NCBI GenBank assembly: GCA_028715115.1
Contig: JAQUSN010000001.1
Span: forward strand, 283,150 to 347,149
Reading direction: 5' to 3'
Length of the DNA stretch: 64,000 bases
Source: Patescibacteria group bacterium
Lineage (GTDB): Bacteria; Patescibacteriota; Patescibacteriia; UBA2591; UBA4787
The notes below the pieces were generated by a model. The model did not search any database, had not been told where the DNA came from, and saw only the letters and a program-made list of their open reading frames with translations. A program made the position numbers and the translations under genes. This document shows positions 2 through 55,010 of the stretch, piece by piece (position 1 is the first letter of the stretch; every line of letters begins with the position of its first letter).

Positions 2-685
2 CGCCTCAAAACAAACAAAAATAACGGCTATGAGCTATTTATAGGAGAAGACAAAAACAAAGATCAGTCATATTTTTTGTATCGCCTGCGCCAAGAGCAA
101 TTAAAATATCTTTTTTTTCCGCTCGGTGATTTAACCAAAAATCAAGTGCGTCAAATAGCCCAAAAAAATAAATTATTTACAGCAAAACGAGAAGAGTCAC
201 AGGAAATTTGTTTTGTTCCCGACGATAATTATCGCCAATTTTTATTAAATAACGGGCTAATTAATAAGCCAGGGAAAATTATTAATAAAAATAAAAAAAT
301 TATCGGTTATCATCATGGGCTATTTAATTATACGATTGGCCAAAGAAAGGGATTGGGTATTAGTAACCCCAGACCCCTCTATGTTGTTAAAATTGATATT
401 AAAAAAAATCAGTTAGTAACGGGTGAGGACAAAGAATTATTAAGTGATAAGTGTTTGGTTAAAAATGTCTCTTGGGTAAACGGTAAACCACCGAAAAAAA
501 ATTCTAAAATTACGGCTAAAATTCGTTATCACAGCTTAGCAACTAGGGTGAATATCAAAAAAGATGGCGTTAATTATATTTGTTATTTTGTAAAAAAACA
601 ACGCGCTATTACGCCTGGCCAGTCGATTGTTTTTTATCAGGGGCAGCGTCTTTTGGGCGGCGGAATTATCAATCGGAGCTATTGA
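2..685 (+). CDS. mnmA: tRNA-specific 2-thiouridylase MnmA, C-terminal part (5' end lies outside the window)
   Basis: The in-frame translation from nt 2 contains the KDQSYFLY motif and a C-terminal beta-barrel region typical of MnmA. No stop occurs before the ORF-track start at 77. Confidence 0.7.
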   Translation, partial: RLKTNKNNGYELFIGEDKNKDQSYFLYRLRQEQLKYLFFPLGDLTKNQVRQIAQKNKLFTAKREESQEICFVPDDNYRQFLLNNGLINKPGKIINKNKKIIGYHHGLFNYTIGQRKGLGISNPRPLYVVKIDIKKNQLVTGEDKELLSDKCLVKNVSWVNGKPPKKNSKITAKIRYHSLATRVNIKKDGVNYICYFVKKQRAITPGQSIVFYQGQRLLGGGIINRSY

Positions 686-732
686 TTAAAGCAAATAAAT
701 TTGATATTATATATCAAGTCTCTGAACAAGGC

Positions 733-805
733 TGCGGGATCGTCTAACGGTAGGACAGCAGCCTTTGGAGCTGCCTATCCTGGTTCGAATCCAGGTCCCG
801 CAGCC
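733..805 (+). tRNA. tRNA-Gln (anticodon UUG)
   Basis: The cloverleaf can be folded by hand: acceptor TGCGGGA/TCCCGCA with U1-A72 and a G73 discriminator (bacterial Gln identity elements), D stem GTCT/GGAC, anticodon stem GCAGC/GCTGC with loop CTTTGGA, and T arm CCTGG-TTCGAAT-CCAGG. CC is encoded at the 3' end. Confidence 0.8.
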
Positions 806-819
806 TTGTTCGGAAGTAA

Positions 820-922
820 GTCTAACGGCCCGCCCCGTAACGCCTGAGCGTAGCGATGGCGGGCGGGTAGGACAGCAGCCTTTGGAGCTGCCTATCCTGG
901 TTCGAATCCAGGTCCCGCAGGC
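820..922 (+). pseudogene. Truncated duplicate of tRNA-Gln (D arm to 3' end) with a 37-nt GC-rich hairpin insert in the D loop; no 5' acceptor strand
   Basis: Positions 866-920 are near-identical to tRNA-Gln 751-804, and 820-828 (gtctaacgg) repeats the D arm. The insert 829-865 (cccgcc...agcgtag...ggcgggcg) forms a hairpin. The upstream sequence cannot pair as an acceptor stem. Confidence 0.6.
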
Positions 923-1039
923 TTGGACGCAAGCGCGTAGAAGGTTAGGCGTTTTATCCTTTAATTCGAGGCTTTTTGAGCCTTGATTTTTTATAAAAAT
1001 TTTGCTATAGTGTAAATACAGCCATAAGGAGGCTTTATA

Positions 1040-1600
1040 ATGAATACAATCGTAACTTCCTCCCGAAAGATGTTATGGCAGATCCTGGCTCGATTGATTC
1101 CCAGGCCTAAACTCAGGGCGCTTGGTTATGAGTATGCCTTTAGGCCCGAAAGCCTCGAGGCATTCCAACTCGTGGCCGACATCGGTCCGGCGCCTAGGTA
1201 TTTTAGGCTTGAGTTTCATCCTTTCATGCATGCTGATGAGTGTCAGGCGGGCGAACCGTGGAGTGTGTCCGGCGACGAAGTGCGTCGTCGGGCCTTAGGA
1301 GAAGAGGGCGAGGCAGCTGGTCAGGCTATTGCTGAAGTGATCATGAGAAATCCCGATGAGCTAAGGGCTCTGATTGGATCTGGTCGAGCTACCGGGCTGA
1401 TCATGAGGGATGTTGATAGAGAGCAGACCATGCCTAGAACTATTCTTTTCCCGGCCACGGTTTGGCAACACAAGGACGGCACTCAGTTCGTTCTCGCCAT
1501 AATCTGTCCGGGAACCAGGCGCCAGAGACTGGTGTTTATTTCCTTGAATCAGCAATTCTGTGGGCCAGGATGTTGCACCGCGCATTTTCGGGCGAGATAG
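1040..1600 (+). CDS. Hypothetical protein (GC-rich ORF)
   Basis: 186-aa ORF at about 58% GC with an AAGGAGG ribosome-binding site 7 nt upstream. An extended -10 promoter (TTGATT-17-TGcTATAGT) lies at 982-1010. A hairpin terminator follows at 1675-1692. Confidence 0.45.
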   Translation: MNTIVTSSRKMLWQILARLIPRPKLRALGYEYAFRPESLEAFQLVADIGPAPRYFRLEFHPFMHADECQAGEPWSVSGDEVRRRALGEEGEAAGQAIAEVIMRNPDELRALIGSGRATGLIMRDVDREQTMPRTILFPATVWQHKDGTQFVLAIICPGTRRQRLVFISLNQQFCGPGCCTAHFRAR

Positions 1601-1674
1601 CTCATCCGTCTAGCTCCTGCCGTTTCATTGCGGCGGGAGTCTTTATATTTTTTTAATTTTAAAGAATAAAGAAA

Positions 1675-1692
1675 GAGGCCCGCAGGGGCCTC
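1675..1692. terminator. Bidirectional GC hairpin GAGGCCC-GCAG-GGGCCTC between convergent genes
   Basis: Perfect 7-bp stem, with an A-run upstream and a T-rich tract downstream. Confidence 0.5.
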
Positions 1693-1713
1693 TTCTGGTT
1701 TATATCTGCTCGA

Positions 1714-2469
1714 TCAACCTCCAATGATCGTGCCGATGAACTCCTGGCCTTCCAGGAGCTTCTTCAGATTGTTCAGGTCACCGGAGACGACCGCGACCTG
1801 GATGTTCCACTGCCGGGCCAGTCTGCTGGCTACTGGGTCGAAGGGGGTCGAAAGTCCGGGCGTCCATTCTTTGGGAATGAAGCTCAGATATTGCTCCCAG
1901 GTGAGATGGTCGAACGGCTTGGCGCTTGGGTGCTTCCGGGGGTCTTTATCGAAAACTCTGAGAACGTTGCTCACGTTGATGACCAGGTCGGCCATTGCCG
2001 TGCGGGCCCTCTCCACTGCGCACCAGTCTGTCGAACGGCCCGGCTTAAAACCGTGGCCGATGATTACTGGCTTGCGAGTCTTTACCGCAGCCGAGGGATC
2101 TCTGATCAGCAGACGATAGGCCTGATTTCCCAGGGCTACCTGCAAGAGTCGCGCGTTGAGCACCGTAGCTTCGATACCCACCTGGTCTCGCAGGGCGAGA
2201 ACTTGCCGGGCCTTAGCCAGGCCGTTGTACCGAGAGCTTCTTTGCGCAAGCATCTCGGCAACCCGGTTATAGGCTCTGGCGGTTGATCCACCACCGACCG
2301 TGACCAAATACTGATGGTCGCAGCTATGGTCGATCAAGAGCTCAGCGAACGTGTGGACGAACCAGGGGTCTAGGCTGATGCCCATACCCCGTTTAACGGT
2401 CACCTTCGGGTTAACCATCGAGCCTCCCAAAGAGACGGAGACCCGTCGGCCTACTTTCAGTATTGGCAC
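1714..2469 (-). CDS. pyrH: UMP kinase, archaeal type (amino acid kinase family)
   Basis: Contains VTVGGGSTARAY and GFKPGRSTD...VINVSNVLRVFDKDP, which match the archaeal PyrH signatures (VTGGGSTAR; GGxQPGQST...ATNVDGVYxKDP). GTG start with an AAGGAGG ribosome-binding site. The coding DNA is GC-rich. Confidence 0.55.
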   Translation of the reverse strand: MPILKVGRRVSVSLGGSMVNPKVTVKRGMGISLDPWFVHTFAELLIDHSCDHQYLVTVGGGSTARAYNRVAEMLAQRSSRYNGLAKARQVLALRDQVGIEATVLNARLLQVALGNQAYRLLIRDPSAAVKTRKPVIIGHGFKPGRSTDWCAVERARTAMADLVINVSNVLRVFDKDPRKHPSAKPFDHLTWEQYLSFIPKEWTPGLSTPFDPVASRLARQWNIQVAVVSGDLNNLKKLLEGQEFIGTIIGG

Positions 2470-2587
2470 TAATCCTCCTTTACGGATTTCTATGTTGATA
2501 TTGAAATAATAGCGTTTTTTGCTTGATTTGTCAAGGGATTTAATTAAAAAATTTTAATATTTTTTAATTAAATTTTTGATAACATAA

Positions 2588-2612
2588 AAACCGTGAGTTA
2601 ATCGCGGTTTTG
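2588..2612 (-). terminator. Intrinsic terminator (AAAACCGCG-loop-CACGGTTTT followed by TTTTT on the minus strand)
   Basis: Hairpin followed by a T-run on the minus strand, downstream of CDS 2664-3038. Confidence 0.4.
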
Positions 2613-2663
2613 TTTATAAGCGAACCCTCGGGCAGGACGCCCGAGGGGTTGAAATGAACTCTG

Positions 2664-3038
2664 CTAGACTGCCAGGATGGTTCCTTCAACCACCCCTTTA
2701 TTGAAGACGAGAGCAACGCGAGCGAGTCGCGCCAGTGTCTTGTTGCCAGGGTCGACGTCACGGACCTTTCGGCCATCATGGCACTCCAGTTGACCGAAGA
2801 GGGTCAGCACTCTCTCGTCACTGGCCGCCAGCGGAGAGAGACTTCGAATGCGGATGCCGATTCTTCCGTATTCGCTCTGGAATGTTACGATTGGCTCCTT
2901 CGCCGGCGAACAGACCAAGAGCGTCATTCTGGTTATGAAGGCCACTGCGTCAGGGGAGTAGGTCACGGCTACGCCGAGAGACAGCGCACCTTGCAGCACG
3001 TCTAACTTTTCCTTCGCTGGGCTATCTGTTGTTGGCAT
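2664..3038 (-). CDS. Hypothetical protein (GC-rich ORF)
   Basis: 124-aa ORF with an AAGGAGG ribosome-binding site 4 nt before the ATG. A divergent promoter TTGACA-16-TATAAT lies in 3060-3100 on the minus strand. Confidence 0.4.
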   Translation of the reverse strand: MPTTDSPAKEKLDVLQGALSLGVAVTYSPDAVAFITRMTLLVCSPAKEPIVTFQSEYGRIGIRIRSLSPLAASDERVLTLFGQLECHDGRKVRDVDPGNKTLARLARVALVFNKGVVEGTILAV

Positions 3039-3141
3039 AGATCCTCCTTTGTATGATTATATTATATCATTTCTTTGGCCTTTGTCAATAGACTGCTTGT
3101 CAGGTATATTTTTATCTGTTATAATCCTATTTATTGTTTTT

Positions 3142-3915
3142 ATGATTGAAGTTAAAAATTTAGTGAAAAAATTCGGTAATTTTGTCGCAGTTAATAATAT
3201 CTCCTTTTCAATAGACAAAGGAGAAATTTTTGCATTTTTGGGGCCAAACGGGGCCGGTAAAACTACAACTATAAAAATGTTGACCACCCTGCTTCATCCG
3301 ACTAGCGGCGAGATACTTTTAAACGGTTATAATCCGCTAACGCACCCCAGTCAAGCTCGCTGCTCTTTTGGTATAGTTTTTCAAGATCCGAGCCTAGACG
3401 ATGAATTAACGGTTTGGGAAAACCTAGACTTGCATGGCGTTTTATACAGCGTGGAGAAGAAAATTCGCCGTGAAAGAATGGAAAATTTACTAAAATTAGT
3501 AGAGCTTTGGGACAGAAAAGATAGTTTGGTTAAAACATTTTCTGGCGGTATGAAGCGGCGTCTAGAAATCGCCCGCGGGTTAATTCATCATCCGACGATT
3601 TTATTTTTAGACGAGCCAACGCTTGGCCTTGATCCGCAGACCCGCAATCATATTTGGAATTATATAAAAGATTTAAACGCTAAAGAGAAAATTACAGTTT
3701 TTTTAACCACGCATTATATGGACGAGGCGGATAAAATGGCTAATAAAATTGCCATTATTGATCAGGGTAAAATCAGTGCCCAGGGAAGTTCGGCGGACTT
3801 AAAAAAACAAACAGGCAAGGATTCTTTAGAAGAAGCATTTTTAACTTTAACCGGCCATAATATTCGCGAGGGGGGCGCGGATAAACTAGCCATGATGAGA
3901 ATGTTTCATAGATAG
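3142..3915 (+). CDS. ABC transporter ATP-binding protein
   Basis: Walker A GPNGAGKTT, ABC signature FSGGMKRRLEIA, Walker B ILFLDEPTLGLD. The ORF-track start at 3049 adds a hydrophobic 31-aa extension that overlaps a divergent promoter region, so the internal ATG at 3142 (MIEVKNL) is preferred. Confidence 0.8.
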   Translation: MIEVKNLVKKFGNFVAVNNISFSIDKGEIFAFLGPNGAGKTTTIKMLTTLLHPTSGEILLNGYNPLTHPSQARCSFGIVFQDPSLDDELTVWENLDLHGVLYSVEKKIRRERMENLLKLVELWDRKDSLVKTFSGGMKRRLEIARGLIHHPTILFLDEPTLGLDPQTRNHIWNYIKDLNAKEKITVFLTTHYMDEADKMANKIAIIDQGKISAQGSSADLKKQTGKDSLEEAFLTLTGHNIREGGADKLAMMRMFHR

Positions 3916-4830: not shown

Positions 4831-7368
4831 TTAGAAAGCAACAGGAACAGGATTAACCAAATTAATATTAACCATTGCTTCGTTATTATTATCAATGTCG
4901 TCGTAGGCTACAATTTTTATTTGATGAGGGCCGGAAGAATATCCGCTTACATTTATAGGGCATGACCAAGGAGCACTATAAGAAATAGCAGCTTGATTAT
5001 TATCAAGGAAGCATTCGACGCGGTTAATTCCGCGCGGCGCGAAAGCGGCGATGTTTACATTAATTAATTGATCGCTAACATAGGCTGCTTCGCTTGGGGA
5101 GGTGATAGTGACTGATGGTTTATTGGCCAAGGTGTGTACGTCATCATATTCGGTTGGCGGCAAATCAGCTTTAATATTATTTTTTGTCATCCAATTACGC
5201 ACGGCTTCTTCCCAGCGGCTATATTGGGGGTCGCTAGACGGATTTATTGGGACTGGGCCGTTAGGATTGTTCTTGTCGACGTATTGCAAAATACTATGAT
5301 AATCATGATAAGATTTTTCTATAATATAACTAGCGGGCGTTAACTCGGTCGCCAGTTTGCCCGACGCTTTATCAATTTTGACCATAGTTTTTCCAGGAAC
5401 ATCGCCAATTAACACTGGATTGCCAGGGTTAACCGGATCTGGCGAGGTAAAATATTCAATAGGTGAATTTGCCAAAGCGCGAACCATGAAATTATGCCAA
5501 ATCGGCGCAGCTACTACAACGCCATCAGCCTGTTTTTTCATTTGAGCGTTGTCATTATTGCCAACCCAAACTCCGCAGGCTAAACTCGGCGTAAAACCCA
5601 TAGTCCAACCATCAACCCAATCATTGGTCGTGCCTGTTTTGGCCGCGACTGGTCGGTCGCCCAAATAAAGAGGCGAGTTGGCGCCGAATATAAATGTTCG
5701 GGCCTGGTTATCAGTTAAAATACTATTAGTTAATCGGGCCACTTGCGTCGGCAAAACTTCCTCAGGTTGATAGTCACTATTCTTCCACTCTTCCAAGACG
5801 TTTCCTTGGCTATCTTCAACTTTCAAAATTGCGCTGGTGGTAATTTTTTTGCCCTCACGCGCCAAGGTGGCAAAGGCTTGAGTATGCTCTAATAATTTTA
5901 CTTCTGCTCCGCCCAGAGCTAGCGATAAACCATAACGACTCGGATCGTTCAGGGTCGTGTAGTCCATTTTTTGCGCTAAGTTTAAAACATTATTTACGCC
6001 AGTTAGGTATAGAGTTTCTACGGCAGGAATATTAAGCGATCCGGCCAGGGCTTGGCGCATAGTGACGGGCCCGCGTTCTTTGCCGTCATAATCATGCGGG
6101 ATATAATTTTTTCCATTTGGCCCGGCTGGACCAAAATTAGTTTCAACGTCAAAGAGCGGCGTATCTGGTGTATAGCCCTTTTCAAAAGCGGCACTATAAA
6201 TGATTGGTTTGATTGATGAGCCGGGTTGTCGCGGGCTTAGGGTCACATTAACTTGTCCATCAATAGAGTCATCAAAGAAATCTTTAGAGCCGACCATAAC
6301 CAGAATTTGTCCAGTTTTAACATCAAGCGCCACCATGGCCGCGTTATTGGCGCCAAAGTTTTTTGCGTTTTTTTCTGCCTGTTTAGTCACTTCTTCTTCA
6401 GCAATTTTTTGTTTTTCAACGTCGAGCGTAGTTGTGATTTTCAGTCCGCCCTGTTCTACCAAGCGTGTGCCGTATTTTTCTGATAATAATTCTTTGATAT
6501 ACATGACAAAATGAGGCGCTAAGATGCTTTCATGTCTGGGCGCTATTTTTTTAAGCGTATCAATATTCTTTGCGGCTTCGGCGCGTTCGTTATTAATATA
6601 ACCATCTTTAACCATTAAATCTAAAATAAAATTTTTGCGGCCGACTAGCTCGTCGCGATGTTCTCCGTTAGGCGAATAATAGGTCGGTGCTTTGGGTATG
6701 GCCGCCAAAAGAGCCGATTCATCCAGGGTCAGGTCGCGGGCTGATTTAGCAAAATACATTTGGCTGGCCTCTTCAATGCCATAGGCATTGGAACCATAGG
6801 GAATCTCATTAAAATACATTTGTAAAATTTGATCTTTAGAGAATTTTTTTTCAATTTGATAGGCTAACAACAATTCTCTAATCTTTCTCGTATAACTTTT
6901 AGTATTGGTTAATAGGGCATTTTTAATGAATTGTTGGGTAATCGTTGAACCGCCTTGCGCTTTTCTTAAATTGATAATATCGGTAATAACGGCCCGAACG
7001 ATACCCCTTAAATCAAAGCCGGGGTGTTTATAAAAATCTTTGTCTTCAACTACGATAGTGGCGTAAACCACGTCGCGAGGAATATCTTGGAGGGGAATAA
7101 GTGTGCGGCGTTGATCGGTAAAAATTTCATAAAGTAATGTTTTGCCGGTGCGGTCATAGATTTTAGTGCTTTGAGCGATCGACCGATCCAATAATTTATT
7201 CGGATTAGGCAAGGTGATGCCTAGCCAGACAAAATTTAAAATTAAAAAAACTACGCCCAAAATAGCCAAAAGTAAAATAAAAAGAAATAATCTTTTCATT
7301 ATTCCGCCTTTGACCTTATGAACGCCTTTAATGGCTTGGCTTCTCCAGTTTGACAGTTTTTTCTTCAT
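4831..7368 (-). CDS. Class A penicillin-binding protein (PBP1A; transglycosylase plus transpeptidase) with a C-terminal extension
   Basis: Transglycosylase motifs (EDKDFYKHPG, GGSTITQQ) and transpeptidase motifs (SxxK-like SIKP, KTG). N-terminal transmembrane anchor. An alternative start at 7299 (MKRLFLF) sits behind a plausible ribosome-binding site. Confidence 0.75.
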   Translation of the reverse strand: MKKKLSNWRSQAIKGVHKVKGGIMKRLFLFILLLAILGVVFLILNFVWLGITLPNPNKLLDRSIAQSTKIYDRTGKTLLYEIFTDQRRTLIPLQDIPRDVVYATIVVEDKDFYKHPGFDLRGIVRAVITDIINLRKAQGGSTITQQFIKNALLTNTKSYTRKIRELLLAYQIEKKFSKDQILQMYFNEIPYGSNAYGIEEASQMYFAKSARDLTLDESALLAAIPKAPTYYSPNGEHRDELVGRKNFILDLMVKDGYINNERAEAAKNIDTLKKIAPRHESILAPHFVMYIKELLSEKYGTRLVEQGGLKITTTLDVEKQKIAEEEVTKQAEKNAKNFGANNAAMVALDVKTGQILVMVGSKDFFDDSIDGQVNVTLSPRQPGSSIKPIIYSAAFEKGYTPDTPLFDVETNFGPAGPNGKNYIPHDYDGKERGPVTMRQALAGSLNIPAVETLYLTGVNNVLNLAQKMDYTTLNDPSRYGLSLALGGAEVKLLEHTQAFATLAREGKKITTSAILKVEDSQGNVLEEWKNSDYQPEEVLPTQVARLTNSILTDNQARTFIFGANSPLYLGDRPVAAKTGTTNDWVDGWTMGFTPSLACGVWVGNNDNAQMKKQADGVVVAAPIWHNFMVRALANSPIEYFTSPDPVNPGNPVLIGDVPGKTMVKIDKASGKLATELTPASYIIEKSYHDYHSILQYVDKNNPNGPVPINPSSDPQYSRWEEAVRNWMTKNNIKADLPPTEYDDVHTLANKPSVTITSPSEAAYVSDQLINVNIAAFAPRGINRVECFLDNNQAAISYSAPWSCPINVSGYSSGPHQIKIVAYDDIDNNNEAMVNINLVNPVPVAF

Positions 7369-10946: not shown

Positions 10947-11238
10947 ATAAACATAAAATTTAACTATTACATTGTCACATATGTAACAGATCGGAATCAA
11001 CAAGACTAGCTAAAAACTTAATAGCGGATGTTGTTGACCTCCGCTGTTTATTTTGTCCAATTTACAAAATTTAGTAATTTAGACAATCAGTTGTTCATTA
11101 ACAATTTGAGTAATCGAATATTCCACCAAAGAATATTCCACTCATTTTACGACCACAACATTCATTCGTTTTTATGTTAATTTTTCCGGAGCGCTTAAAT
11201 TTATTTAAGCGAGTCGGAAAATCAAATCAAATTTTTTT

Positions 11239-12752
<1,514 letters not shown>

Positions 12753-13025
12753 TAGAGGAAAATTTCCCTCACTTTCTAGTTTTTTTGACATCAACAGGTT
12801 AGTCAAAGATGAATATATATGATGATTTATCTGACAACACAGAAGTGCTTTAAGAAAACTAGAAAGTGAGGGAAAGTCGATTGTTTTTATCTTGCTTCGG
12901 CAGGGTAGAAACAATTTGCCCTAGTTCCAATTTTATTGGAATTATGGTAAACAAGAATGTTGTGGTCGTAAAAGTAGTGGAAATAAAAAGCAAGCTTTTG
13001 ACAAGCTTGTTTTTTATTTAAAAAA

Positions 13026-13102
13026 TGGTGGGCGCACGAGGATTCGAACCTCGGACCTTTACAATGTCAATGTAACGCTCTAACCAACTGAGCTATGCGC
13101 CC
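13026..13102 (-). tRNA. tRNA-Val (anticodon GAC)
   Basis: Reverse complement GGGCGCATAGCTCAGTTGGTTAGAGCG-TTACA-TTGACAT-TGTAA...TTCGAATCC...TGCGCCCACCA. CCA is encoded. Confidence 0.85.
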
Positions 13103-13105
13103 CTC

Positions 13106-13182
13106 TGGTGGGTGTGGGAGGACTCGAACCTCCGACCTCTTCATTATCAGTGAAGTGCTCTAACCAGCTGAGCTACACACCC
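13106..13182 (-). tRNA. tRNA-Ile (anticodon GAU)
   Basis: Reverse complement GGGTGTGTAGCTCAGCTGGTTAGAGCA-CTTCA-CTGATAA-TGAAG...TTCGAGTCC...CACACCCACCA. The promoter TTGACA-16-TATAAT lies at 13196-13223 on the minus strand. Confidence 0.85.
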
Positions 13183-16349: not shown

Positions 16350-16769
16350 GTGGCGAAGCGACGTTACTTGTCTGACCATTTCAATCAGGATCTGAAAGGA
16401 TTCAGGATTCTGGAGGTTTGCTATCTAAGAGAGCCGCCTACATATAACTCTCCTCGGGTAGAGATGCTTTGTCGGAAAACGCGCAGGGGCGCCGGACCGG
16501 TGATCTTCTTTCCAGAGGGGTTGTTGCACGGCGGGCTTTCCGTTGGACGAGCATTCCGCGGCTGGCACTTGCACAAGGGCTATGCCCTGGTGCACCTAAA
16601 GACAGGCAGAGCCTTCTGGCTTAACGGGTTTCAGAGCACAGAGCGGTATCCGTCCAGACCGGCCGGGCTGTGGGTTACTAAGCGGCGCTTAGCCGCTTGG
16701 CGTCGGCAAGGGCGCCTGCCTCTTACTGCCGGCCTGAGGTCTGTCAGCGATATGAGTGGAGTCGATTAG
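16350..16769 (+). CDS. Hypothetical protein (GC-rich cassette ORF)
   Basis: 139-aa ORF at about 57% GC. The promoter is TTGACA-16-TGcTAAGAT at 16288-16318. A terminator lies at 16790-16823. Confidence 0.45.
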   Translation: MAKRRYLSDHFNQDLKGFRILEVCYLREPPTYNSPRVEMLCRKTRRGAGPVIFFPEGLLHGGLSVGRAFRGWHLHKGYALVHLKTGRAFWLNGFQSTERYPSRPAGLWVTKRRLAAWRRQGRLPLTAGLRSVSDMSGVD

Positions 16770-16789
16770 GGAGGTGGTATCATATTCAC

Positions 16790-16823
16790 GGGCGCTGGTT
16801 TGCACCAGCGCCCTTGGTTTTTT
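16790..16823 (+). terminator. Terminator GGGCGCTGG-TTTGCA-CCAGCGCCC followed by TTGGTTTTTT
   Basis: 9-bp GC stem plus a T-run. Near-identical to the terminator at 17717. Confidence 0.65.
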
Positions 16824-16969
16824 AAAAAAACAATTCTTGACAAAGCCATAAAATTTTGCTAAAATATCAATATTACTGGGTGAGCCCGGTATACCTAAGT
16901 CATGAGGGTAAAATCATGACAAGGTCCAAACTGCTTTCAGAGGTGCGCCTTTGAAGCAAAGGAGGATAC

Positions 16970-17701
16970 ATGTCTGATGGTGCCAATGTCGTTGAGTGCC
17001 TTGCTCGCACTACGCCGCTTTCCAGCGCAGAATGGGCTGCGTTGGTAGAGGCTCGCCGTCGTCTCTTTTCTCGGGTGGTTGCGAAATGGCGAACTCTGCC
17101 AAGTATCGGGGATCAGAAAGGTCTCTATGTCGAAGGCCATCCAAGTCCAATCAATGGCGGTTTGCTAAGGAGCAGGATCGTCTATGTATTTGGGGAATTA
17201 GGCAGCACGACCGTTTCGGAGACCGGGGAAGCGCAGGGCGTATTCGAGCATATCGGCCATGAGTTGCCAAAGCGCCGGGTCAATGAAGATCTTCCGTTGC
17301 CCTCGGATCTAGATCCCGATATAATAGGGACTCTTCGCTACTGGGCCTTAATGAGGAATGGTGCCTGGGCTCTAATAACCGTTTTTTACGTAACAGGTTA
17401 CGGTTATAAGAATCGGGGCAAGGACATCGCATTTAGGGTCGTAATTCAGCATTGCGCTTTCGACGAGCTACTCAAAGAGGCGAAGATTCATCCACGACAG
17501 ATCTGGTGGCGGTTAAGAATAGCTTTTGCCGAGGCCATCAACGCCACTCGACGCCGTGCTCAAGTCGCAGAAGAGCTGGCTCGTCGCATAATGGCTGAAG
17601 ACGAGCTGCTCAGGGTTTCGCCAGGAGAAAACGAAGCAGCTCCTACAGACGCCCTGCGGCACTTTGTCCGTGAGCTCGATAATCCCAGCAACGACGACTG
17701 A
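16970..17701 (+). CDS. Hypothetical protein (GC-rich cassette ORF)
   Basis: 243-aa ORF at about 57% GC. The promoter is TTGACA-17-TGcTAAAAT at 16839-16869, followed by a roughly 100-nt structured leader and an AAGGAGG ribosome-binding site. Confidence 0.45.
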   Translation: MSDGANVVECLARTTPLSSAEWAALVEARRRLFSRVVAKWRTLPSIGDQKGLYVEGHPSPINGGLLRSRIVYVFGELGSTTVSETGEAQGVFEHIGHELPKRRVNEDLPLPSDLDPDIIGTLRYWALMRNGAWALITVFYVTGYGYKNRGKDIAFRVVIQHCAFDELLKEAKIHPRQIWWRLRIAFAEAINATRRRAQVAEELARRIMAEDELLRVSPGENEAAPTDALRHFVRELDNPSNDD

Positions 17702-20191: not shown

Positions 20192-20599
20192 ATGAAGATA
20201 GTTACAATCCACCGAGCAGCGAAGCTTAGAGCTTTTCTGGCTCATCATGCCGGGAAAGATGATCTCGGCAACAGGACGTATCGACTCGCTACCAGGAGAG
20301 ACATTCGAGCACACGCTCCTTTGTTCTGGGTTCCGATATATCGGGGTCTTCGCTTCAGCGGGGAAGCCCGTTTCGATGATCTCTACGGCGGTATGTATGA
20401 GATTATACTAGGTGACGATGCTTTCGTCGGCGAATATGTTCAGTTTTCGGTCGTCGATAGCGTCATTGACGGCGATCCGGCCTTGAGGCGGTCAGGTCTG
20501 ATAGAGGTAGACTTTGACTATATGACCGAAGAGGCCCACCCAGCGTCTGCAAATTCGCCGCACCTGACTGACCTGTTCCTGGTCGAGGACAAGTCGTAG
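20192..20599 (+). CDS. Hypothetical protein (GC-rich cassette ORF)
   Basis: 135-aa ORF. The promoter is TTGACA-16-TACAAT at 20132-20158, with an AAGGAG ribosome-binding site. Two further small GC-rich ORFs follow at 20609-20746 (45 aa, Lys/Arg-rich) and 20753-20809 (18 aa), each with its own ribosome-binding site. Confidence 0.4.
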   Translation: MKIVTIHRAAKLRAFLAHHAGKDDLGNRTYRLATRRDIRAHAPLFWVPIYRGLRFSGEARFDDLYGGMYEIILGDDAFVGEYVQFSVVDSVIDGDPALRRSGLIEVDFDYMTEEAHPASANSPHLTDLFLVEDKS

Positions 20600-20853
20600 G
20601 AGACAAAGTGCCCAAGACAAAGAAAGCGAAGAGATACAAACCTCGTCGATCAAGACCTCGAGGTATGAGCGTTATGGAGCGAAACGAGGTCAGGTGGCGG
20701 GAGGAGCACGTTTATCCCTATACCTTCCCAGTTCGCTAGAACAAGGAGGCAAAATGCGCATACGCGCTGGTCCCGTCGACTTTGGTCGGCGGGACTTGCT
20801 TTTAAAATAAAAAACGAGCGTAAAGCTCATTTTTGTTTTAACTTGATTTTTAA

Positions 20854-30541: not shown

Positions 30542-31207
30542 ATGATTGCGAAATTATTGTCTGCGGTAAATGTCGGGCTTGAAGCGCGCTTAGTTGAAAT
30601 AGAAGTTGACGTCAGCCGCGCTTTCCCGTGTTTTAATATCGTTGGCTTACCGGATAAGGCCGTGGAAGAGGCGAAAGAGCGGGTGCGCGCGGCCATAGAA
30701 AATTCCGGCCTAAAGTTTCCTGGCCAGCGTCGCATTGTTGTTAACTTGGCTCCGGCTGACATAAAAAAAGAAGGCCCAGTTTACGATTTGGCCATCGCCT
30801 TAGGAGTTTTAATCGCTTCTGAACAATTACCGCAAGAAATCCTTAAGCAAGGGATTTTTTTCTTGGGAGAATTAGCGCTTAACGGAGAATTACGGCACAC
30901 GCGCGGCATTTTACCGATGATGATTTTTGCCCGAGAGAAAGCCATCAGTGAAATATATTTGCCCAAAGATAATTTAGCAGAAGCGCAGCTTATTCCCGGA
31001 CTCACTATTTATCCTTTAAATTCTTTAAGCGAATTAATCGGCCATTTAACCAAAGCCAAAACTATTGAGCCAATTATTAGTAGAGGAGTAAAAATAGAGG
31101 CGAGCGATGAATTTGAGGTTGACATGGCTTATATCAAGGGCCAAGAATTTATTAAACGCGCCCTAGAAATCACTGCGGCCGGTGGGCATAATATTTTGGT
31201 GGTATGA
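30542..31207 (+). pseudogene. comM: comM (Mg-chelatase-like YifB), N-terminal fragment truncated by an insertion
   Basis: Lon-like N domain that ends ...AAGGHNILVV-stop, exactly where the ComM Walker A (GPPGTGKT) should follow. The remainder of the gene resumes at 48758. Confidence 0.75.
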
Positions 31208-41744: not shown

Positions 41745-42062
41745 AGATTTTGTTGCTTAATTTTTTTGTTAAATTTGCTGGCGAAAATACAAAACCCGCC
41801 GCCAAGCGAGACTTGCGCCTCCTATACCCTTTCGGATATAGACCACGTGTATGGAGCCTGAACGACGGGTTCAGTCAGTATACACGTGGCTTTATTGCCA
41901 TGCCCACAGAGATTCCATGGGTTTAGGCAACTTAATTGTTGATTTTATAATAACATAAAGAAATAAAAAGGGTAGCCCAGTGAATAAATTGTGTAAATTT
42001 TCGGCTTCGTTTAGCTTGACAAATGTAAAAAATGCTATAAAATATAATAAACAAGGTCCAAA

Positions 42063-46932: not shown

Positions 46933-47111
46933 ACTTGACTGGATATACCAGGGTGTTATAATAATAACGTTGACCCATGTCCCAAAACATCCCTAAGATT
47001 TTTATTGCCCTGTTGCCCTCAAGGGGGCGGCTATGCCAATGAGGCAATCCTTAGGGAAAGCGGATTTGGGTCAACCATGGCCGCCCCTTTAATTTGTTTA
47101 TAAAAAATTAT

Positions 47112-48758
47112 ATGAAAGTAGCTATTTATGCTCGGGTTTCTACAGAGCACCAACAAGAGCAAAAAACAATTGAATCCCAGGTAGACGAGTTAAGAAGAAT
47201 TTGTAATAAACAAGGAGTCTATATTGTTAGAGAGTATGTAGACAACGGTTGGAGTGGCGAGACCCTGGATCGACCAGAATTGGATAGGCTAAGAACCGAG
47301 GCCTCCCAAGGAATTTTTGAACGAGTTTATTTTTATTGCAACGATAGATTATCCAGGAATCTCTCTAATCAAGGGATTATAGTTCAAGAGTTGGAAAGAA
47401 AGGGTATTGAGGTCTATTTCTATGACAAACCAATAGCCGACACTCCCGAAGGCAGATTTTTATTTCAAATATTGGGAGCTGCGTCAGAGTTTGAGAAGGC
47501 GAAGATTTTAGAACGGACAAGAAGGGGGAAGCTTTATAAAGCAAGAAGAGGGGTGGTGGTTGGGAGCTTGTCGCCATTGGGATTTGAATATATCAAAAAA
47601 ACGAAGGAGAAAGACGGATATTATATAATAAATAAGTCAGAGGCTGAGATTATTAATCTAGTTTTTGATTTATATCTACAATTTGGCAGCGTCAGAGAAG
47701 TGGCCAAAGCATTAACAAATAGAAATGTTAAGCCCAAGAAAGGGAGACATTGGCGTACTAGCACTTTACATAGAATTTTAAGAAACGAGACTTATATTGG
47801 CACCACTTATTTTAATAAATCTTATGCCATTGAAACAAGCACGGTAAAACAAAAATATAGAAAGATAGTTAAAACTGGTAGAAAAATGAGAGATAAAAAA
47901 GACTGGATTCCGATTGCCGTTTCTCCGATAATTGAAAAATCAAAATTTAATGCAGTACAGGTGTTATTGGCAAAAAATCATAGGGCCTTTGTATCTGGAG
48001 GCAATCATTATTTATTGGGTGGATTATTGAAATGCGCTATCTGTGATTCGCCCGTGGGAGGAGAATTAAGCCATGGCCATAGATTTTATCGGTGTAATAA
48101 TAGGCACCGGACATTTCCATTACCAAAGAAATGTAATGCTAAAATGATTGGTGTCGATAAATTAGACCCCGCCGTTTGGGAGTCTGTTACTAGGGCGATA
48201 ATGGATCCTCGCATATTGGTTAAATATATATTAGATAAGACAGAAAAGATTAAAAAGAACGCGGGGTCTTTAAATACAGAGATAGAATCATTACGTCAAG
48301 AAAAGAACAAGGTCAAGGCCAAAAAAGATAATCTATTTGACTTATATGCCGACAGTGGCATTAACAAAGAATCAATTTTAGAGAAAATAAGAAATTATGA
48401 GAAGCAAGAAGAGAACCTAGATAAAAGAATAGCAGATCTAAGTCTTCAGCTAACTCAGAGGGTTGATAGGCCATTACTTATTCAAGATGTTGAATATTTC
48501 TGCGAAGTGGCCCAAGGGAAAATAAAAGACTTCTCTCTTGAAGAGAGGCGCAGGTTCTTAACGTATCTTATAAACAAAATAACCGTTGACTCTATTAAAA
48601 AGAAGGTTATAATAACAGGATATATTCCTTTAACTCAGGCTCAAGAGGGGCCAACGAATTTGACAGAAGTTCTTTCAAATCAATATAATAGGTTGGGCGG
48701 TTATGTTTGTGGTTCTCCGTCTCAACCTTATGGTGGTGTGTTGTCCCCACAGTGTTGA
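47112..48758 (+). CDS. Large serine recombinase (serine integrase)
   Basis: N-terminal resolvase domain MKVAIYARVSTEHQ (catalytic Ser), then a recombinase domain and a zinc-ribbon/coiled-coil region, about 550 aa. It sits at the junction of the element with comM. The ORF-track start at 47094 is also possible. Confidence 0.8.
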   Translation: MKVAIYARVSTEHQQEQKTIESQVDELRRICNKQGVYIVREYVDNGWSGETLDRPELDRLRTEASQGIFERVYFYCNDRLSRNLSNQGIIVQELERKGIEVYFYDKPIADTPEGRFLFQILGAASEFEKAKILERTRRGKLYKARRGVVVGSLSPLGFEYIKKTKEKDGYYIINKSEAEIINLVFDLYLQFGSVREVAKALTNRNVKPKKGRHWRTSTLHRILRNETYIGTTYFNKSYAIETSTVKQKYRKIVKTGRKMRDKKDWIPIAVSPIIEKSKFNAVQVLLAKNHRAFVSGGNHYLLGGLLKCAICDSPVGGELSHGHRFYRCNNRHRTFPLPKKCNAKMIGVDKLDPAVWESVTRAIMDPRILVKYILDKTEKIKKNAGSLNTEIESLRQEKNKVKAKKDNLFDLYADSGINKESILEKIRNYEKQEENLDKRIADLSLQLTQRVDRPLLIQDVEYFCEVAQGKIKDFSLEERRRFLTYLINKITVDSIKKKVIITGYIPLTQAQEGPTNLTEVLSNQYNRLGGYVCGSPSQPYGGVLSPQC

Positions 48759-49458
48759 TGAGCGGGCCGCCTGGTTCGGGAAAAACTTTTTTAGCTCGCG
48801 CCTTACCGTCAATTTTGCCGATTATGACGGAGCAAGAAGTCTTGGAAGTGACGAAAATTTATAGCATCGGTGGATTATTAAAAGAAAATCAACCCTATAT
48901 TAGCGAACGACCTTTTCGCGCGCCAAAGGCCACATTACTTATCCGGCTAAATTTACCCTGGTTGCCTCGCAGAATCCTTGCCCGTGCGGTTATTTTGGCG
49001 ATCCCGAAAAAGACTGCACATGTAGTCCAATTCAAATAATGCGCTATCGCAAGAAAATTTCCGGCCCGCTTTTAGATAGAATCGATTTGCACGTTGAAGT
49101 GCCAAGAATAAAATTCGAAAAATTATCGAGTGAAGAAGCGGCTGAGCCGTCTAAAAATATCAGGACTCGAGTGCAGGTGGCGAGGGAAAGGCAGTTAAAA
49201 AGATTTGAAGGACTTAAGATTTTAACTAACGCCGAAATGTCAGCCCAGCAATTAAAAACATTTTGTCCAGTTGATGCGACTGGCCAGGATTTATTACGTC
49301 GGGCCGTTGACGAATATCACTTGTCTGCCCGTACTTATCATCGTATTTTAAAAGTGGCGCGCACCATTGCAGATTTGGCCGGCGAAGAAAAAATTTTACC
49401 ACAATACTTAGCCGAAGCCATTCAATATCGGATCAAGGAAGAAGAAAAAATATTCTAA
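48758..49458 (+). pseudogene. comM: comM, middle and C-terminal fragments, with an internal deletion of about 70 codons and a frameshift
   Basis: Frame A (48758-48930) reads MSGPPGSGKTFLARALP...RPFRAP. Frame B (48904-49458) reads HITYPAKFTLVASQNPCPCGYFGDP...ISGPLLDRIDLHVEV...YHRILKVARTIADL. The segment between RPFR.P and ITYPA (Walker B and sensor) is missing. Confidence 0.7.
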
Positions 49459-49487
49459 AAAAAGACCGCCGCGGGGCGGTCTACGAT

Positions 49488-49679
49488 CTACCGGCGGCGG
49501 ACATGACCAGCCAAACCCGTACACTGTTCGAGGCCCTTTTTAAGGGCATCGGGATGGGGTTGGATCGCCACTCGCGCTCCATTGGGGCGGTCATCGAAAT
49601 AGTCTCCGTTTACGTGTGCACCACAAGTAGCGCACACCACTTCGACATCGCCCGTTTTTGGGGACTCGGATTGAGTCAA
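49488..49679 (-). CDS. Small GC-rich hypothetical protein with a CxxC motif
   Basis: 63 aa. TTG start 5 nt after AGGAGG. A minus-strand promoter TTGACA...TATAAT lies at 49700-49735. The terminator GACCGCC-CCGC-GGCGGTC plus a T-run (minus strand) lies at 49455-49481. Confidence 0.35.
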   Translation of the reverse strand: MTQSESPKTGDVEVVCATCGAHVNGDYFDDRPNGARVAIQPHPDALKKGLEQCTGLAGHVRRR

Positions 49680-54537: not shown

Positions 54538-54777
54538 ATGGCGCAAAAGCACGTTAAGGCCGCGAATGGCCAAGGCATAGTCAACGGAACGCGAGTCAAG
54601 AAGGTCGTCGACAGCAGTCGGCGCCACAGTAGACATCCCGTCGGTTCGACAGGAAGGGCCATACATATCAACGAAAAAATTGGCACCTTCGACGTTGCCT
54701 ATGACCGTGGCGGCCGAGCGAACGATTGTCGACCTGATCACTTCGAGGTCGTTTCCGGAGGCGCTCCGACTAGTTAG
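54538..54777 (+). CDS. Small GC-rich hypothetical protein (cassette ORF)
   Basis: 79 aa. AAGGAGG ribosome-binding site. Promoter TTGACA-17-TATAAAT at 54476-54505. Strong terminator at 54870-54909. Confidence 0.4.
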   Translation: MAQKHVKAANGQGIVNGTRVKKVVDSSRRHSRHPVGSTGRAIHINEKIGTFDVAYDRGGRANDCRPDHFEVVSGGAPTS

Positions 54778-54869: not shown

Positions 54870-54909
54870 GCGGGGCCAGGTATATCCTGGCCCCGCTTCT
54901 CCATTTTTT
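54870..54909 (+). terminator. Terminator GCGGGGCCAGG-TATAT-CCTGGCCCCGC followed by a T-run
   Basis: 11-bp perfect GC stem, then TTCTCCATTTTTT. Confidence 0.65.
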
Positions 54910-55010
54910 AGGGCCTTTCACATGATTTTCACCTTGGCACTTGACGTTTTATTTTTACCTGCTACAATGAGATATACTTAATAAGTCGTTATCTACACAA
55001 TTTTTAAACT

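Follow-up and report, generated by a model that had tools for sequence, protein, structure and literature searches.

How do three GC-rich genes come to lie beside a tRNA gene in an AT-rich bacterial genome? This question is raised by a block of 2.1 kb, starting at about position 935 and containing only the open reading frames (ORFs) 1, 2 and 3, in a 64-kb stretch of DNA from a Patescibacteria group bacterium. That stretch (the window; mean GC content 39.5%) also holds a bacterial 16S rRNA gene, four tRNA genes and housekeeping genes, and the neighbors of the block are mnmA, tRNA-Gln, an ABC transporter gene and the PBP1A gene. A preliminary description of the sequence had proposed a horizontally acquired islet. 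We give a slightly better than even chance to the view that horizontal acquisition brought a small accessory islet to a tRNA-Gln hot spot, and that the block, with its three autonomous units resembling phage morons, is this islet. In Patescibacteria, genomic islands and frequent exchange have already been described (PMC12455944), and no paper mentions the accessions concerned here.

Three GC-rich expression units

The three block genes were compared with a reference set of the 50 ORFs in the window that have host composition. These host-type ORFs had a mean GC content of 0.384 (standard deviation 0.041, maximum 0.486) and a mean GC content at third codon positions (GC3) of 0.356 (standard deviation 0.057), against which ORF1–3 gave z scores of +3.6 to +4.8 for GC and +3.3 to +6.0 for GC3 (individual values are shown in Table 1). 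The share of arginine, R/(R+K), was 0.72 in the block genes and 0.35 in host genes; leucine was encoded mainly by CTG and CTC in the former and by TTA in the latter, and the choice of arginine codons was foreign too. ORF1–3 were therefore outliers in GC, GC3, codon use and amino-acid use alike, which supports the view that all three are foreign in each of these respects.

The preliminary description had spoken of a block of about 58% GC in a genome of about 38%, set off by a sharp compositional jump. The contrast itself was confirmed (z of at least +3.6), but the figure of 58% is true of ORF2 and ORF3 only, and the jump belongs to the ORFs (53.5–58.1% GC) rather than to the block as a whole. 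Because the spacers between ORF1–3 are AT-rich (GC 0.27–0.44), the stretch 1001–3000 has an overall GC content of only about 53%, and the edges of the GC-rich DNA in the block coincide almost exactly with the ends of the ORFs.

The block is three self-contained expression units, not one operon. Each unit would consist of a sigma-70-type promoter, an AAGGAGG ribosome-binding site, a GC-rich ORF and a hairpin terminator, all of these signals being predicted by a consensus scan and by reading of the sequence. The promoters to which attention had been drawn previously were present (that of ORF1 being a TG-extended TATAGT), as was the GC hairpin terminator acting in both directions between ORF1 and ORF2. 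There were ten promoter-like sites in the region 600–3300, compared with 2.0 (standard deviation 1.6) in shuffled sequences, and the ORF3 promoter is divergent from that of the ABC transporter (3097–3125). Just upstream of the ORF2 promoter lies a 36-nt palindrome composed of A and T only (2538–2573; ATTTAATTAAAAAATTTT/AATATTTTTTAATTAAAT, 94% complementary).

These signals had been described as host-like. For the promoters this was borne out, since consensus promoters are common to host genes as well (18 sites with at least 11 of 12 matches), but for the ribosome-binding sites it was not. AAGGAGG sits 4–7 nt ahead of the start in all three block genes; of the eight copies of this heptamer in the 64 kb, six lie 4–7 nt before the starts of GC-rich ORFs, and none precedes a host-type gene. 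The best match to AGGAGG was 5–6 of the six positions for GC-rich ORFs, compared with 2–5 for host ORFs, which never reached 6 even when the best-scoring candidate start was picked. The host-type genes of the window are thus without Shine-Dalgarno sites. Since the 3′ end of the 16S rRNA gene (about 12740–12755) reads GGATCACCTCTTTT, the anti-Shine-Dalgarno sequence is CCUCU and not CCUCC, with which AAGGAGG would still pair through one G-U pair. The strong Shine-Dalgarno sites may have come with the ORFs, or they may be needed if GC-rich mRNAs cannot use the Shine-Dalgarno-independent, AT-rich initiation of the host.

The block is not unique, in that the window contains at least five GC-rich units, the block included. 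The other four are single-gene or two-gene units (B–E in Table 1; GC 0.52–0.57) in which promoters match the consensus, Shine-Dalgarno sites are strong and terminators are hairpins; they lie in intergenic gaps between housekeeping genes, none of them near a tRNA gene or a tRNA-derived scar such as that described below. Unit B consists of ORFs at 16350–16769 (139 aa, GC 0.574) and 16970–17701 (243 aa, GC 0.534). A ribosome-binding site and a TTGACA...TGCTAAnAT promoter precede each of them, and they end in nearly identical hairpin terminators, reading GGGCGCTGGTTT..CCAGCGCCC and then TTTTTAAAAAAACAA. No family matches were obtained with those ORFs of units B–E large enough to search (16350–16769, 16970–17701 and 20192–20599), and a paralogy check among the GC-rich ORFs of the window yielded no related pairs (N = 0). 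Because at least four further GC-rich units led by Shine-Dalgarno sites occur in the window, the genome appears to take up such units repeatedly.

Table 1. Positions of the block genes, their predicted signals, the adjacent tRNA features and the other GC-rich units of the window
Feature	Position	Strand	Description
tRNA-Gln(UUG)	733..805	+	ARAGORN; Rfam 60.9 bits
Scar	820..933	+	Degenerate second tRNA-Gln-like copy; Rfam tRNA 29.2 bits
ORF1 promoter	983-1011	+	TTGATT-17-TGcTATAGT; consensus scan
ORF1 ribosome-binding site	1026-1032	+	AAGGAGG; promoter and site span 983..1032
ORF1	1040..1600	+	186 aa; GC 0.535, GC3 0.545; orphan gene (ORFan)
ORF1 terminator-like hairpin	1613..1640	+	Hairpin scan
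Two-way GC hairpin terminator	1672..1695	both	Between convergent ORF1 and ORF2; found on both strands
ORF2	1714..2469	-	251 aa, GTG start; GC 0.581, GC3 0.694; divergent archaeal-type UMP-kinase-like protein, amino-acid-kinase fold
ORF2 ribosome-binding site	2474-2480	-	AAGGAGG
ORF2 promoter	2534-2506	-	TTGACA-17-TATTAT; consensus scan
Two hairpins past ORF3 stop codon	2586..2650	-	Second, with T run after it, is likely terminator; read from sequence
ORF3	2664..3038	-	124 aa; GC 0.568, GC3 0.632; ORFan
ORF3 ribosome-binding site	3043-3049	-	AAGGAGG
ORF3 promoter	3088-3061	-	Perfect TTGACA-16-TGnTATAAT; consensus scan
Unit B	16350..17701	+	Two GC-rich ORFans
Unit C	20192..20810	+	ORFan 20192-20599 (135 aa, GC 0.525) and short Shine-Dalgarno-led ORFs
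Unit E	49479..49679	-	GC-rich 66-aa ORF; TTGACA promoter, GAGGAGG site, terminator
Unit D	54538..54777	+	GC-rich 79-aa ORF; promoter, AAGGAGG site, terminator about 54871-54910

The site downstream of tRNA-Gln

The preliminary description had noted a tRNA-Gln gene with a duplicate ahead of the block, and both were found: 68 nt at 866–933 are 94% identical to 749–816 within and just after the tRNA gene. This copy of the tRNA 3′ part is preceded by a piece of the D-loop (820–828, GTCTAACGG) and a GC-rich palindromic insert (829–865), and together they form a scar without a 5′ acceptor strand. Both copies lie upstream of the block, i.e., on its tRNA side, and there was no third copy in the 64 kb with 3 mismatches allowed. 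The repeat is a scar at a hot spot, therefore, and not a pair of island borders. As a candidate phage attachment site (attP), the insert of the scar had no exact match in viral contigs.

The 55-nt 3′ part of the tRNA, used to scan metagenome contigs, led to four loci (L011–L014) whose tRNA-Gln is 100% identical. The order IscS-NifU-MnmA-tRNA-Gln was kept in L011, L012 and L013, which are distant relatives (MnmA 56–58% identical). After the tRNA, L011 and L012 carry genes unrelated to those of the block and no ORF2-type gene: an Mrr-like nuclease in L011, and in L012 (5077–7606) a vWA-like protein of 340 aa and an adenylosuccinate-synthetase (PurA)-like protein of 476 aa, both of whose genes carry AAAGGAGG sites. 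The two L012 genes may be an accessory or defense pair. Contig L013 ends soon after tRNA-Gln. In L014 there is a scar that has the same parts as that of the window, i.e., the D-loop piece GTCTAACGG, a GC palindromic insert (CCCGCCC...GGCGGGCGG) and the tRNA 3′ part, with no 5′ acceptor strand, and at a distance of about 100 nt from this scar a gene for a large serine recombinase of 455 aa. Because the content after an identical tRNA-Gln differs among relatives, the stretch is a plastic recombination hot spot, which supports the idea of an islet. The step from an att-like duplicate to an acquired islet can therefore be upheld in part, by the variability of the site and by the recombinase at the same scar in L014, although the block lacks an integrase and is not enclosed by the duplicate.

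An inverted repeat (721–739/796–814) lengthens the acceptor stem of tRNA-Gln in the window. Such extra extensions, of 7–12 bp, were also seen in L014 (about 750–835) and L013 (about 130–215), and L011 and L012 were without them. The sequences of the extensions differ in each genome (GAACAAGGC/GCCTTGTTC; CCAGACC/GGTCTGG; CTCTCCAAAGC/GCTTTGGAGAG) with pairing kept, so that both sides must have changed. Downstream of tRNA-Gln in L013 (1–141), a degenerate tRNA-Gln-like 5′ piece, different from the scar of the window, comes first, and a 22-nt GC-rich palindrome is then repeated perfectly in tandem, 4.1 times, up to the end of the contig, recalling the GC palindrome inside the scars of the window and L014.

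The window has a large serine recombinase of its own (47094–48758). It lies at the right end of an AT-rich insert of about 17.5 kb that splits a comM/yifB-like Mg-chelatase gene, the ChlI N-terminal part being at 30542–31207 and the rest at 48707–49039 and 49039–49458. The insert, which looks like an integrated mobile element, carries genes for an Mrr-type nuclease, SNase, FtsK-like proteins, a trypsin/SH3 protein and a DnaG zinc-ribbon protein. Also within it, on the minus strand (41808–41929), is a LOOT RNA motif (Rfam RF03000) scoring 81 bits against a gathering threshold of 46.4. The 16S rRNA gene, on the plus strand within 11234–13182, is followed by tRNA-Val and tRNA-Ile on the opposite strand and not by 23S, so that the rRNA genes appear to be unlinked.

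Products of the block

ORF2 contains the motifs previously attributed to it (VTVGGGSTARAY, GFKPGRSTD and FDKDP). It matched PF00696 over residues 12–229 (E = 9.7e-18) and the P. furiosus uridine monophosphate (UMP) kinase structures in the PDB (2BRI, 2BMU and 2JI5) with E values of about 1e-19 (best 7e-20). In an alignment of 10 sequences that included the P. furiosus enzyme, ORF2 kept all 28 invariant columns; GGS, GGG..R, PG..D, N..V...DP and DP.A are conserved. It is 33–44% identical to canonical archaeal-type UMP kinases, from which it differs by an inserted loop after GGS, shared with its sister protein P0002, and by 11 residues after the GGG helix. The best family was TIGR02076 (pyrH_arch, an NCBIfam equivalog), but the score of 136.6 bits fell below the curated cutoff of 158.05, as did that of P0002 (137.8 bits), whereas canonical homologues from Patescibacteria, spirochaetes and archaea scored 168.6–188.5 bits. 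In a rough neighbor-joining tree, the pair formed by ORF2 and P0002 branched outside the other 83 sequences.

The product of ORF2, annotated by NCBI as hypothetical, would therefore best be called a divergent UMP-kinase-like enzyme. Since all invariant residues of the family are kept, it most likely phosphorylates UMP or a closely related nucleoside monophosphate at the expense of ATP. The earlier identification as an archaeal-type UMP kinase was right as to fold and invariant residues and went too far as to equivalence, given the score below the cutoff. Nor does the label point to an archaeal donor, because canonical UMP kinases of Patescibacteria are themselves archaeal-type. A scan with ORF2 of a genome collection that excludes the window's own genome gave as its sole match a 30%-identical Thermoplasmatota gene. 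No second UMP kinase of the same metagenome-assembled genome (MAG) was found among the homologues, the three NCBI and Logan matches looked up being from other samples.

As judged by homology searches, ORF1 and ORF3 are strict ORFans, restricted to the species. ORF1 yielded self matches only, both in a word-indexed search of 5.8 billion proteins and in an exhaustive HMMER search of 1.84 billion representatives, and ORF3 yielded a single self match among the 5.8 billion; the ORF1 product is recorded on a 479-kb contig as 'MAG: hypothetical protein PHV78_01490 [Patescibacteria group bacterium]'. The statement that these two ORFs have no recognizable motifs was confirmed, in that neither matched a Pfam, NCBIfam, PHROG or PADLOC family; the PHROG and PADLOC scans gave only two weak matches (E near 0.03) and no credible family. 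PDB sequence searches with ORF1 and ORF3 gave noise only, and single-sequence AlphaFold2 models had a predicted local distance difference test (pLDDT) score of 34.0 for ORF1 and 38.5 for ORF3, making them unusable. A phage or plasmid origin found no support. Neither ORF matched phages by tblastn, neither they nor the unit B ORF at 16970–17701 had relatives in viral contigs, and phage and plasmid collections gave no DNA match.

Origin of the block and likeness to known systems

If the block is an acquired islet, foreign in composition, that settled in the recombination-prone stretch downstream of tRNA-Gln, then site-specific recombination at the scar would be the likeliest entry route, to judge from the recombinase in L014. 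We can only infer the mode of entry, because no integrase and no bracketing repeats were found in the block when tested for. Arrival would have been stepwise, probably with the kinase unit first and ORF1 later, since ORF1 lies between the scar and the kinase gene and no gene is present at that position in the short contig (L005) that encodes P0002.

Several observations weigh against this account. Besides the lack of an integrase and of bracketing repeats, the AT-rich spacers begin and end at ORF boundaries, which simple transfer of a GC-rich chunk would not give. ORF2 could be the sole pyrH of the organism and not an accessory gene, since the window showed no further archaeal-type UMP kinase and the 479-kb contig is listed by no other match; no donor lineage was visible in 5.8 billion proteins; and the relatives in which the tRNA-Gln site was compared are distant. 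There is also the composition of P0002, the only close homologue of ORF2 (47–48% identity), which has a GC content of 0.562 and a GC3 of 0.638 between AT-rich flanks (0.345). The high GC content thus seems to be long-lived in AT-rich surroundings, and a plain account by recent transfer, not yet ameliorated, seems to fail.

The resemblance between the two loci extends beyond the coding sequence. P0002, on a 967-bp contig from an unrelated metagenome (k141_563147 of ERZ27247823), has a TTGACA promoter, and its spacer resembles that of ORF2 (local score 31, compared with 19.6, standard deviation 3.2, in shuffles, 17 of 2000 of which reached 31). The two units have in common the AAGGAGG site, the hairpin terminator and the orientation, and a tRNA-Gln(-like) gene points with its 3′ end towards P0002 at a distance of about 110 nt, which is the arrangement of the window minus ORF1. 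Because this closest homologue shows the same mosaic and the same tRNA-Gln neighbor, the kinase unit beside tRNA-Gln is old and not a fresh arrival, and the earlier claim of horizontal acquisition has to be qualified to that extent. At residues identical in ORF2 and P0002 the same codon was used in 37.6% of cases, close to the 36.4% expected from the codon usage of each gene, so that synonymous sites appear saturated. Two other homologues, P0003 and P0004, have the low GC content of hosts (0.33–0.37). Either ORF2 and P0002 arrived recently and independently at the same site from unsampled GC-rich sources, or the mosaic is ancestral and its high GC content has been kept; since it is posed by one short contig, we treat this as a puzzle and not as a finding.

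It is conceivable, if unlikely, that these are resident genes of the lineage whose GC-rich coding sequence is actively maintained, with vertical inheritance of ORF2, beside tRNA-Gln, as the clade's own and probably sole UMP kinase, and with high GC content and strong Shine-Dalgarno sites constituting a selected expression regime in a genome otherwise without such sites. This would fit with the coincidence of GC-rich and ORF boundaries; with the mosaic, ribosome-binding site, promoter-like spacer, orientation, tRNA-Gln neighbor and saturated synonymous sites common to ORF2 and P0002; with the branch that these two form outside the other matches; and with the lack of another UMP kinase in the window or match on the 479-kb contig. 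However, its comparative evidence comes from a single contig of 967 bp, L011 and L012 are without an ORF2-type gene there, and ORF1, ORF3 and the other GC-rich ORFs are without homologues, unlike conserved resident genes. The shift in amino-acid composition also points to long evolution under GC pressure, not to codon selection alone, and we know of no mechanism that holds GC3 near 0.65–0.7 in single genes of an AT-rich bacterium. Somewhat less probable again, although compatible with acquisition of an islet, is descent of the block from a serine-recombinase integrative element with tRNA-Gln as its target, of which it would be the decayed cargo end, the recombinase and the far att site having been lost. 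The identical scar architecture adjoining the large serine recombinase of L014 and the element inserted in comM in the same genome speak for it, as does the GC palindromic insert, which as read from the sequence lies between two GG dinucleotides (serine recombinases typically use a 2-bp crossover). Yet the L014 element is AT-rich and not GC-rich, the region 930–3140 contained no recombinase remnant or second att site, the four other GC-rich units have no tRNA or scar nearby, and the recombinase in the window is only 25% identical to that of L014.

Two further explanations fared worse. GC-rich stretches in AT-rich genomes are often structured RNAs, and the GC-rich transcripts of ORF1, ORF3 or both might be such RNAs and not protein-coding; their lack of protein homologues and poor models would fit, as would a z score of −3.5 for RNA folding of ORF1 against shuffles. 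We nevertheless think this very improbable, since a perfect AAGGAGG lies 4–7 nt before the ATG of each ORF, and each ORF fills the span between promoter and terminator, the chance of so long an open frame at this GC content being, by our own estimate, about 4e-4 for ORF1 and about 1e-2 for ORF3. Moreover, the folding z score for ORF3 was only −1.0, and no Rfam match was obtained in either ORF even at E ≤ 1. A sharp switch of composition in metagenomic contigs might also suggest an assembly chimera or contamination from a GC-rich organism, but this can hardly be credited. The block was identical in three Logan assemblies from separate runs (100% over the parts covered) and, over its whole length, in an NCBI MAG contig that differs only within PBP1A, and these span the AT/GC junctions; the protein (PHV78_01495) is recorded under four NCBI accessions (MDD2646513.1, MDD5121172.1, MDD5222018.1 and MDD5395909.1; assembly GCA_028713815.1) as well as on the 479-kb contig; the junctions lie within AT-rich promoters and terminators serving the GC-rich ORFs; and five separate units have a common architecture. 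An assembly artifact was therefore rejected because independent assemblies are identical across the junctions.

Of the sequence shared with contig L001, 5.1 kb, the GC-rich block included, were likewise identical, with no strain variation in the block. All 16 differences between the window and L001 (99.7% identical) fall within 560 nt of the PBP1A gene (5099–5662, the C-terminal part), and eight of them change an amino acid; this is a local hypervariable or recombined patch. Because all 16 differences are in PBP1A and none in the block, strain variation provided no test of selection.

If the block is an ordinary acquired islet, it documents the tRNA-Gln that follows IscS-NifU-MnmA as a hot spot and contributes a divergent subfamily of UMP-kinase-like proteins to what is known of gene exchange in Patescibacteria, which have tiny genomes and rely on salvaged nucleotides. 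Together, GC content and AAGGAGG mark foreign genes cleanly in this genome, giving a simple tool for a census, and a GC-rich gene that has lasted between AT-rich flanks in two lineages, with saturated synonymous sites, would be a testable exception to the usual picture of amelioration. A bolder idea, about which we are doubtful, is that the self-contained GC-rich units with canonical Shine-Dalgarno sites, most of them ORFans but one of them the UMP-kinase-like gene, are a gene class apart, and that their high GC content has long been maintained in a chromosome that is AT-rich, poor in Shine-Dalgarno sites and has CCUCU as its 16S anti-Shine-Dalgarno sequence. If so, such genes would have a translation or expression regime of their own, or else units ready for expression would be supplied again and again, at fixed sites like tRNA-Gln, from a hidden mobile reservoir of high GC content, which may be connected with the host of the episymbiont. 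Overall, as an islet of moron-like units, the block would be an ordinary kind of feature with some unusual details, and its interest lies mainly in the link between GC content and Shine-Dalgarno sites and in the apparently long-lived kinase unit.

Among known systems, tRNA-linked genomic islands and islets owe their position to an integrase, which inserts them at the 3′ part of a tRNA gene. The block resembles them in lying next to a tRNA gene with a partial 3′ duplicate, in its foreign composition and richness in ORFans, in its variable site, at which it is absent from the distant relatives L011 and L012, and in the recombinase found at the same scar in L014. It differs in its size of 2.1 kb, in lacking an integrase, in a duplicate that does not bracket it, in that each gene is its own transcription unit, and in that similar GC-rich units occur away from any tRNA. 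Integron cassettes, which are promoterless ORFs with an attC site after them, arrayed beside intI, were also considered and rejected: the units have their own promoters, the downstream hairpins of 22–28 nt are terminators with T runs, and the units are scattered and on both strands. The integrase gene intI was not seen among the annotated ORFs, and no search was made beyond those.

A moron has its own promoter and terminator and a GC content unlike that of its neighbors, as in the HK97 gene 15 element (PMC3594210). The block units are similar in being single genes of atypical GC content, each with its own predicted promoter and terminator, placed between unrelated genes. Unlike morons, they lie in the chromosomal backbone and not within a phage or prophage genome, have no adjacent phage genes, and lack PHROG or viral-contig relatives and any match to phage DNA or proteins. 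With the archaeal-type UMP kinase PyrH (TIGR02076), ORF2 shares the amino-acid-kinase fold and all 28 invariant columns; it departs from PyrH in its score below the cutoff, its two insertions and its GC-rich coding sequence at a hot spot. Finally, ORF1 and ORF3 are like species-specific orphan genes of atypical composition in being short, of atypical GC content and without homologues among 1.84–5.8 billion proteins. Foreign genes are more often AT-richer than the host, whereas ORF1 and ORF3 are GC-richer, and the genes of the block and the other units are, alone in the window, provided with canonical Shine-Dalgarno sites.

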